DNA from: Vairimorpha necatrix
Taxonomy: Eukaryota
NCBI GenBank assembly: GCA_036630325.1
Contig: CP142732.1
Span: 930,001 to 994,000, forward strand
Reading direction: 5' to 3'
Length of the DNA: 64,000 bases
Program-made: the position numbers and the translations under genes
Shown: one piece after another, positions 57,561-60,464 of the stretch
Layout of the letters: the number at the start of each line of letters is the position of its first letter
Position numbering within the stretch: the stretch's first letter is position 1
The notes under the pieces: generated by a model
What the model saw: the letters and a program-made list of their open reading frames with translations, nothing else
Database searches by the model: none
Told to the model about the DNA's origin: nothing

Positions 57561-58630
57561 AACTTACATCCTTACTTTTATTAGTAAAGTTACTAACTTT
57601 TGGTATATTGTTGGGTAGACAATAATTTTTTGTACAGCTTAGAAGCCGTATAACTTGTTTTTTATTAAAATATATATTATTTAATAAAATTCTTTTAATA
57701 ATAGGATTTCTATCAGTGTTCCATGTGATGTTTACTATCAACTTTCATGTCTTTCCTGAGCTGTTCTATATTCAGCTCGGAAAGGAAGAACTCTTTATGG
57801 CTTACTGTAGAATTATCAGATAGCCCCCTTTTTATAACTTTTATTGCCTTATCAACAGGCACATACTTCTTCCAATTTTGACGAAGATCGGAGAATATTT
57901 TCGTCAAAGCTGATCTGTTCCTAGAGATGTAGTCGCCTACTTCGTTTTCGGCAACTAATACTCTTACATTTTCTGAAGAGCTCCCTAGAGTTTCTGCAGC
58001 TTGAAAGCAGAATTCATCTCTAATGAGAAGGATTCTACCCTCTCCTTCAATGTCTTTTACTAGAGGAATATTCTTTTCCTCTATGCCTATTCTTTTGGCC
58101 CAGGTCTCCCTAATGATGTATTCTCCTCGGGGGAAACCATAAGCGACTACAATTTTGTATTTGCAGTCCTTGAGCCTCTTTCCGTTGATTGCTAGGTCTA
58201 GCAACTCTTCTCTGGATAGCTTATCTAACCAATTCGGCTGTTTCTTCCTCGATGTGTGAGGAGGAGGTACCTTAAGCGAAGAAGTTTTCTTCATCTTGAA
58301 TTTGCGCTCAGTCAAAATTTTCGACTTTGCACAACCTTCTATATATGACAGTAACAAATCATCTTTCAGTATTTTTTTTACAAGTTTTAGAACTTGAAGC
58401 GGGTACTTTCAACTGTTTCGTGTCACAGTTGAAGTTCTTTTTTATACCTTCTAGGAATGGGGCAACCCTATTGGCATCTGCTGTTTTTGAAGTTTTTGAG
58501 GCATCAGCTTTTTTTGAAACCTTAGGTTTCATATCACAATTTTTAAGAATGATTGTCCAGTCATTCTCCGTCTTTTCTGTTAGAAGAATATCTTTCTTCA
58601 ACAATTTCCTGTTTCCTTTTACGGCGGCGG

Positions 58631-59427
58631 CGGGGTGCCCTTAGCACAGTGGTAGAATGCTATGCTTCCATTGAGCAATGGCTGGGTTCTATTCCCAGGG
58701 GCACCAAAATTGTTTCTACTTTCTATGATGCAGTTGGAACAACTCAGATGATGAAAATGTCCACGATAATCATTTTTATTCAAAATAACTGATGTGTGTC
58801 CAGCCACAAGGGCATTAGCATCTAGTGTAGAAACGCACCTCAAGGCCAAAAAGCAGTATCGCCCTTTGGTGACTTAATGATACATAAAAGTATCTAATGG
58901 GTGCGGCCTAGTTGGAGCCCATGGCTGGTGCACTCTAGAGTGGGATTCTAGAGCTAACTAAGAGACTAGACGAAGTAGGGCAATAAAAGGTCTCGTGGAC
59001 CCTATCCTACAAGATTCTGTAACACGGTGGCCGAAACTAGTGGGAGACTGGTGGTCAACGCAGCCCAATAAAAACGCCGGGCTGGGGATGTGGTCGTGTA
59101 AGGAGCCGTGTGTGCAATACAGATGATTGTAGGGACCTTTGAGTCAGTACGATGATGTCTCTCCTCGGGTTATAGATAACCATGCCCGTTAAGTATATCC
59201 GCTGTGAGGTCACTCTGGACGCGATTTGAGGTATAAATGGAAAGTGTTCTCCTGGAGCCAAAGTCCAATGTATACGACGGAGCTTGCTGCACCGGCAAGT
59301 TGTATGGAGAGAGTTTTAGTGAGTAAGAATCTCACAGTACCAGTTGGATGAGGATCACACTTAAATCCCTCTGGTCCCTATGTAAGGTTTCTCCCTACCT
59401 CTTACTTGCAAGGAAAAAAAAAAAAAA
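58631..59427 (+). mobile_element. tRNA-derived SINE with poly(A) tail and 13-bp TSD
   Basis: TSD TTTACGGCGGCGG at 58618-58630 and 59428-59440; tRNA-like head at 58634-58706; A14 tail at 59414-59427; no convincing ORF. Confidence 0.85.
58634..58706 (+). other. tRNA-like SINE head (pseudo-tRNA with Pol III A and B boxes)
   Basis: Acceptor GGTGCCC/GGGCACC, A box TAGCACAGTGG, T-arm CTGGG-TTCTATT-CCCAG (B box with one mismatch), imperfect anticodon arm with CAT at the loop centre. Confidence 0.8.
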
Positions 59428-60464
59428 TTTACGGCGGCGGTTACCTTCCGTAAAAACACATTAAAGGCATTGGATGATGGTATCTTTGAACCAGTAACCT
59501 TTATTTGCTCTTTATCTTGAGCTTTAGAGAAGACACCAAACTTCTCCTTTTCCTTTTTTTGATCAGTACGATCAGCTTTTATGGTGATTGGTTCTTCACA
59601 CCCTCCTTTTTTTGCAGTGAGAATCATGTCAATTCTTTGCTCTAATCTTTCATTTGAAGCCTTTAGGGCATCAATTTGTGTGTTGAGTTAATTTCTCATT
59701 ACAGAAATCTCAATCTCGTGCTGCTTCTTCAAGTTTTTAAGCTTGAATCTCTGTTCATTATGCTCTTCACAGATGGCATCTAAGTACTCCTGATGAATAC
59801 TTATCACTCCATGTGAACTCTTACAATAGACAAGGCTAGCCATCAGCCCAGCTCTCCCACAGTACCTTTGGTTGGCATTTCTGCCTTCTTCTATCTTTAT
59901 TCTGTTGAATAAAGTCTCTGTTTGTGACCAGAATTTTATCAATTCTTGGTCTGTGTGAATAGCAGCATTGCGAAAGCTGCCAACTTCACAATCTAGTTTG
60001 TAGCCTTCCAATACTAGTGATTTACAATTTCTTGTACTCCAGAGGTCGATAAGTCGGCCCCAATCTCGCAAGTTTCTTCCTCCTTTTTTTTGCGTTTGGT
60101 GAACCCCATTTTTTGGTTTTAAATTCTACCTTTCATTTACTAACTTTAAAAATTAGTCATTTTATTTTCCACATAATCCACGATGTTTCCTCCTGCAAAT
60201 AGATCTAATTCCCTTAAAATATAAATGATAATACTAATTAGGCTAGTGACCGAAGGTTAGTAAGACTTAAGAGATTTGCACCTAGTTATAAAACATCAGT
60301 CATCGCTGAATCAACATTGAGTTTACATATCGTGATAATTAATAAAAAAAGATAGTAAATATTTTCCTATGCAAAACAGGGAATTATTAGTAAAATCTCG
60401 AAATTATACTTCTTGATTAAAAAAAATAAAAATGTTTATTGTAAAAAGACAGATCAGCAAAACG

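Follow-up and report, generated by a model that had tools for sequence, protein, structure and literature searches.

The question raised by this locus is what kind of sequence interrupts the first open reading frame (ORF1) of a decayed long interspersed element (LINE) in a 64,000-nucleotide stretch of contig CP142732.1 (positions 930,001 to 994,000), referred to here as the window, with coordinates counted from its first letter. An initial annotation, made from the letters of the window, had proposed that a tRNA-headed short interspersed element (SINE) was retroposed into this frame by target-primed reverse transcription. Our analysis leads to the same answer. The insert is very probably a young member of a microsporidian SINE family whose copies are tRNA-derived and poly(A)-tailed, as indicated by a 13-bp target-site duplication, contigs of other LINE copies in which this site is empty, the presence of many copies of the element in public sequencing runs, and the endonuclease, reverse transcriptase (RT) and zf-RVT domains of the host LINE.

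The insert was analyzed initially at its boundaries. It occupies positions 58631-59427 on the plus strand, measures 797 bp with a GC content of 45.9%, and is non-coding. Two perfect 13-bp copies of TTTACGGCGGCGG enclose it, at 58618-58630 on the left and at 59428-59440 on the right, and its 3' end is a run of 14 A residues at 59414-59427, corresponding to the A-rich tail of a tRNA-derived SINE. The repeats and the tail were read directly from the sequence, and the positions given in the initial annotation proved correct. Excision by script of 810 bp, representing the insert and one repeat, yielded an unbroken minus-strand frame (...FLRKVTAAVKGNRKLL...) over the junction, confirming the proposal that the frame of the host ORF1 is restored locally. 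It should be noted that exact 13-mer repeats at such spacing are not rare in this AT-rich window: 112 non-low-complexity matches, many of them overlapping, were counted at spacings of 100-2000 bp, against a mean of 15 in Markov-1 simulations. The TTTACGGCGGCGG pair is set apart by being GC-rich, by its position directly against both the tRNA-like head and A14, and by the existence of empty-site contigs. The undamaged duplication and the pure A14 point to a recent insertion. Furthermore, immediately 5' of its duplication the SINE has TTCCT, where the LINE, to go by a paralogous repeat copy, has TTCTT, a likeness between two events only that is weakly compatible with a single endonuclease preference.

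The tRNA-like module begins three bases inside the 5' boundary of the element (58634 against 58631). ARAGORN reports a tRNA-like gene with the anticodon CAT at 58634-58706 on the plus strand, and the Rfam tRNA model matches the same head from end to end with 24.5 bits, the gathering score being 29 (E = 0.05 in a 3-kb search). The genuine tRNA genes of the window obtain 60.5 and 52.2 bits under the same scoring, and the head is therefore regarded as a degenerate copy of a tRNA, that is, a pseudo-tRNA with an anticodon-like CAT. The A box TAGCACAGTGG (58642-58652) and the B box GGTTCTATTCC (58685-58695), both on the plus strand, were assigned according to the consensus of each. A composite pattern of the A-box end and the B box, AGTGG-N20-50-GGTTCNANNCC, matches three times in 64 kb, at the two genuine tRNAs and at the head, with a chance expectation of 0.01. 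In the minimum-energy fold, the acceptor and T arms of the head are stably formed. The proposed tRNA head with A and B boxes thus holds on three counts, namely the ARAGORN call, a sub-threshold match to the full Rfam model as for a pseudo-tRNA, and the box pattern, which together suggest a tRNA-derived 5' module with internal boxes of the RNA polymerase III (Pol III) type. The highest-scoring Rfam match of the head was mascRNA-menRNA, with 25.4 bits against a threshold of 42.5, and was rejected as another tRNA-like model.

The presence of an empty site and of further copies was analyzed by aligning contigs of four public runs (X1-X4) to positions 57800-60200 at 80% likeness. Runs X5-X11 (freshwater, bovine, root and soil metagenomes, with small shares) were left out of the evidence, and X4 contributed six weak pieces, all below 95% identity. 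One X1 contig, with 37 letters on its shorter side, and one X2 contig, with 96 letters, join 58617 directly to 59428. Each joint skips 810 bp, corresponding to the insert and one repeat copy, and leaves 13 ambiguous letters that fit either side. This is the empty site expected where a LINE copy lacks the insertion. Two more X2 contigs, derived from diverged LINE copies, also lack the insert. The uninterrupted LINE copies for which the initial annotation advised a search were found in both X1 and X2, and the duplication has its exact matching empty site.

Alignment to the same region gave 318 contigs in X1, 587 in X2 and 20 in X3. Divided by identity (at least 99%, 95-99%, 90-95% and below 90%), they number 56, 61, 79 and 122 in X1, 137, 168, 156 and 126 in X2, and 2, 10, 6 and 2 in X3, respectively. 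Summed contig depth, which is not equivalent to copy number, was 187-624 over the insert and 5-28 over the flanks in X1, and 5,309-273,568 over the insert and approximately 250-700 over the adjacent flanks in X2. At positions 58813, 58903, 58947, 59271 and 59277, between 13 and 17 distinct X1 contigs and between 12 and 26 distinct X2 contigs share another base, so that at least this number of distinct copies is present and the window copy departs slightly from the family majority. Contigs leave the element at 58634 (five in X1, agreement 0.51) towards unlike AT-rich flanks and at 59421 (four in X1, agreement 0.57, and one in X3) towards unlike AT-rich sequence. The evidence of dispersal consists of these unlike flanks at both ends in X1-X3. 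Depth, distinct contigs and unlike flanks at both ends together point to a dispersed family rather than a one-off retrocopy or a part of the LINE, and as judged from these contigs the element is dispersed, diverged and multi-copy. In some contigs a different or diverged head is joined to the common body at 58680 or 58707, which suggests the existence of subfamilies; the variant heads at 58680 are still tRNA-like and keep CAT in the position of the anticodon loop. The best share of exact insert words in any run is 0.46, indicating that X1-X3 were obtained from relatives rather than from the source and that the family is shared beyond one genome; its sequences occur in two organisms and in a sample of bat gut. 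Other collections were also probed with exact 20-mers of the insert, with no match in prokaryote genome contigs (two probes) or in viral contigs and no locus in metagenome contigs with the first probe. The second probe gave two metagenome loci, on gut-metagenome contigs of approximately 47% GC (L001, 11981-12004, and L002, 5263-5286), which share only an exact 24-base match with positions 58730-58753 of the SINE and were rejected as chance.

The tRNA-unrelated body, approximately 707 bp at 58707-59413 on the plus strand, is common to many X1-X3 contigs and unmatched in Rfam at E ≤ 1; a scan of the whole window with Rfam added nothing new. No similarity was found between the body and the LINE or the rest of the 64-kb window, nor between the insert and the 3' end of the LINE. 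The longest stop-to-stop frame in the insert is 86 amino acids, and none of the eight insert frames of at least 50 amino acids has a Pfam match at E ≤ 0.1. The insert accordingly reads as a short, non-coding and, to judge from these frames, non-autonomous element of the kind represented by SINEs. The suggestion that the body might be an undescribed structured retro-RNA was not borne out: the fold z-score of the whole element is only -1.62 on the plus strand (20 shuffles), not detectably above shuffled sequence. The corresponding value is -3.16 on the opposite strand, and segments of the element give -2.55, 0.03 and -2.18, with -2.13 for the head. The description of the body as unusually long is valid in comparison with animal SINEs but not with those of fungi, for which elements of 700-900 bp are in print (excerpted text of PMC5063351). 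The collections of plasmids and E. coli contain no match to the insert, which disfavors vector or bacterial contamination. By these contigs and searches, the insert appears neither single-copy, nor present in every copy of the LINE, nor a LINE 3' fragment, nor a contaminant, four outcomes that the initial annotation had named as counting against a SINE.

The host LINE extends over 54004-60144 on the minus strand, its 5' end being approximate. Its predicted components occur in the order of an APE-type non-long-terminal-repeat (non-LTR) retrotransposon, with an upstream open reading frame (approximately 60112-57713), an endonuclease (Exo_endo_phos, 56697-57563, Pfam 4.5e-07) and a reverse transcriptase (RVT_1, 54694-56459, Pfam 1.2e-26), followed by a zf-RVT domain (54018-54377, Pfam 0.0014), all on the minus strand. 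A Pfam search of the pieces of the upstream frame, which the SINE breaks, matched no family, and the name ORF1 is thus a label by position only. Despite the locally restored frame, the LINE is broken by several stops and frameshifts. The ends at approximately 54004 and 60144 were derived from collinear alignment of its flanks with a nearby copy of a 490-bp repeat. Downstream of the ORF2 stop codon come AAT and then A8 (T8 on the plus strand, 54004-54011, read directly), which according to the same alignment abuts target sequence directly, and the LINE family is therefore considered A-tailed. The nearest named relatives of its RT are from Vairimorpha necatrix (46% identity), Smittium culicis and Batrachochytrium salamandrivorans, that is, microsporidian and fungal rather than animal. 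Neighboring genes encode a TLC ATP/ADP transporter (Pfam) and RPA1, the top named relatives of the latter belonging to Nosema granulosis (60%), Ordospora colligata (47%) and other microsporidia, from which the genome is recognized as microsporidian.

Origin of the family from outside this lineage is the first alternative to be weighed. The insert is GC-richer than the genome around it, as had been stated in the initial annotation (45.9% against 29.1% in the window). In combination with documented transposon exchange between microsporidia and animals (excerpted text of PMC4202319), and with the fact that X1 belongs to a multi-organism study with approximately 270 Mb of contigs per run, this composition might suggest horizontal transfer from an arthropod host, or that the high-copy signal in X1 and X2 derives in part from a host genome. 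However, the LINE is also GC-richer than the window, at 37.7-38.5%, so that a raised GC content is shared by the transposons of this region. Sequence flanking other copies is AT-rich, as this genome is, flanks belonging to the microsporidian LINE are also present in X1 and X2, and the microsporidian and fungal affinity of the RT argues in the same direction. Such an origin is considered unlikely, and it would concern only where the family came from, being compatible with the SINE mechanism.

Regarding that mechanism, a source copy would be transcribed, most likely by Pol III directed by the A and B boxes inside the head, to give an RNA with a templated A-tail. The endonuclease and RT of an A-tailed LINE in the same genome could then take up this RNA in trans, nick the target, here ORF1 of a LINE copy now decayed, and prime complementary DNA synthesis on the A-tail, a process of target-primed reverse transcription that would leave the 13-bp duplication. 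The sole RT in view is that of the A-tailed, decayed LINE with its APE-type endonuclease, which makes its family the candidate partner, and the lack of sequence similarity between SINE and LINE fits recognition by the tail only. The window copy contains runs of T, namely a T5 run at 58773-58777, approximately 143 nt into the element, and a T4 run at 59314-59317, both on the plus strand. Downstream of the genuine tRNA genes Asp-GTC and Leu-AAG (53312-53382 and 5955-6036, minus strand), T5 runs lie at distances of 0 and 4 nt, and the internal T5 therefore probably stops Pol III in the window copy. The initial annotation had warned of such early termination, a caution that is reasonable for this copy but does not extend to many of the others. 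Four X1 and six X2 contigs depart from the window copy after 58774, of which two and four, respectively, rejoin it at 58793, and contigs that depart between these points read a segment free of T5. Judging from these differences, the window copy is probably dead on arrival or mutated, rather than a master gene or source of full-length Pol III RNA.

An element with such runs might instead be a non-autonomous retroposon transcribed by RNA polymerase II (Pol II) or by read-through, similar to the long elements of powdery mildews, in which case the tRNA module would be a relic. The length of approximately 800 bp, the T5 and T4 runs, the low tRNA score and the published fungal "SINE" elements of 700-900 bp (excerpted text of PMC5063351) are in agreement with such a view. 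Against it stand an intact A-box/B-box pattern at the exact 5' end, the lack of the T5 run in many other copies, and the variant heads on the same body, which are still tRNA-like with CAT preserved. Transcription of this type is judged distinctly improbable. As for a one-off chimeric retrocopy, formed by template switching of the RT from a cellular RNA to a tRNA, or an internal part of the LINE, it is favored by the single copy in the window and by the chimeric retrocopies known from LINE template jumps in fungi (abstract of PMC2104539), but has almost no probability, given that many distinct contigs in three runs span the head-body junction and the body, that other LINE copies precisely lack the insert, and that the insert has no LINE similarity.

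Several observations weigh against a Pol III-transcribed, LINE-mobilized SINE family. The tRNA match of the head is weak, at 24.5 bits under the Rfam score of 29, and its D and anticodon arms are absent from the minimum-energy fold. A Pol III transcript of approximately 780 nt would be long, and the window copy holds the T5 and T4 runs described above; among the listed runs with insert sequence, none is recorded as RNA. The 64-kb window contains a single copy of the SINE, the evidence for many copies is derived from samples other than the source, in which the share of exact words does not exceed 0.46, and the summed depths are subject to the reservation given with them. Moreover, the window LINE is itself dead, which leaves an active partner out of view. 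A tRNA-derived SINE family still accounts best for the locus as a whole, though little credence is given to its furthest extension: a young, high-copy and possibly active family across related microsporidia, in its boldest form with a GC-rich body gained from or exchanged with an arthropod host.

The surroundings of the insert display further repeats. A second clean insertion, a non-coding element of 490 bp at 60420-60909, is located between perfect 16-bp direct repeats TTATACTTCTTGATTA (60404-60925). Neither orientation of it shows a 3' poly(A); on the plus strand it opens with A8TA5 and closes with a CCCTCC...GGAGGG stem. Older relatives of this element are found nearby, with 64% identity to 53759-53956 and 70% to 60198-60293. 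The LINE flanks 53695-54003 and 60145-60307 both align collinearly with it, indicating that the LINE was inserted into an older copy of the 490-bp repeat and the SINE later into the LINE. For the LINE itself, there is no more than a hint of a degenerate duplication of approximately 12 bp. The resulting three-level nest of transposons lies between the RPA1 and tRNA-Asp genes on one side and the ATP/ADP transporter gene on the other, starting approximately 300 bp upstream of tRNA-Asp. Elsewhere in the window, 4541-5090 is a block of diverged repeats, either tandem or dispersed, whose units measure approximately 50-100 bp at 70-87% identity, and a 67-bp tandem duplication with 97% identity is present at 37979-38116.

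The initial annotation was not aware of well-characterized SINE families in microsporidia. Here, a search of the full-text literature, with supplements, Dfam and Repbase outside its scope, found no paper in which a microsporidian SINE is characterized, and to this extent the statement stands. It requires qualification by the repeat table of Nosema bombycis, in which an automated pipeline had earlier counted 28,669 bp of SINE-class repeats (0.18% of the genome); the excerpted text describes no family, structure, head type or insertion (PMC3614468). Surveys of microsporidian transposons cover LTR elements, LINEs and DNA transposons, and the word SINE is missing from their main texts, as excerpted (PMC4202319, PMC7313128), and from the excerpted main text of a study of 40 microsporidian genomes (PMC12558613). 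One genome paper reports zero SINEs (PMC11585130), and in a 2026 paper on Glugea only a figure legend includes SINE as a category (PMC13702014). An automated repeat-library entry for the present family may exist. As far as the searches reach, this is the first anatomically defined SINE family of Microsporidia. A defined family would fill a gap in repeat libraries and shrink the "unknown" fraction of repeats, and the presence or absence of its copies, which rarely arises independently a second time, could supply markers for typing strains and species in a taxonomically difficult group. It would also imply that a LINE using A-tails has been active recently enough to move other RNAs. Were the family to have come from, or been exchanged with, a host, it would not only be the first SINE characterized in the phylum but would also trace RNA or DNA traffic between host and parasite. 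The understanding of SINEs in general is unchanged, the mechanism being unsurprising.

Two groups of known systems invite comparison. In mammals, Alu, B1 and B2, which are paired with LINE-1, have a Pol III promoter inside the element and end in an A-tail but lack 3' sequence derived from the LINE; their RNA is mobilized in trans by the endonuclease and RT of LINE-1, through target-primed reverse transcription that leaves duplications of approximately 7-20 bp. The window SINE would work in the same way. It differs in its tRNA-like head, whereas those of Alu and B1 are 7SL-like, in a presumed bottom-strand nick site without terminal T residues to pair with the A-tail, unlike Alu and LINE-1, and in a candidate partner LINE of fungal and microsporidian rather than LINE-1 lineage. 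The second group is fungal, and the likeness is one of description, not of sequence. The fungal tRNA-derived SINEs MgSINE of Magnaporthe (472 bp, approximately 100 copies), Foxy of Fusarium and AfuSINE2 of Aspergillus fumigatus (140-493 bp, with 4-14-bp duplications) share with the window SINE a head that is related to tRNA and contains Pol III boxes, an extended region unrelated to tRNA, short duplications of variable length and a dependence on LINE enzymes that is presumed for the window SINE; one AfuSINE2 copy also adjoins a LINE (excerpted text of PMC5063351). The window SINE is longer, at 797 bp, and belongs to another phylum, and it ends in pure A14, whereas AfuSINE2-1a ends in ACT repeats (PMC5063351, as excerpted). 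In size, it resembles the long fungal SINE or SINE-like elements, comprising mgsr1 (800 bp, approximately 40 copies), Egr1 (700 bp) and egh1/EGH24 (900 bp) of Erysiphe/Blumeria, with which, again by description, it shares the 700-900 bp class, a non-coding sequence and a dispersed distribution, the copy number of those elements being moderate (PMC5063351, as excerpted).

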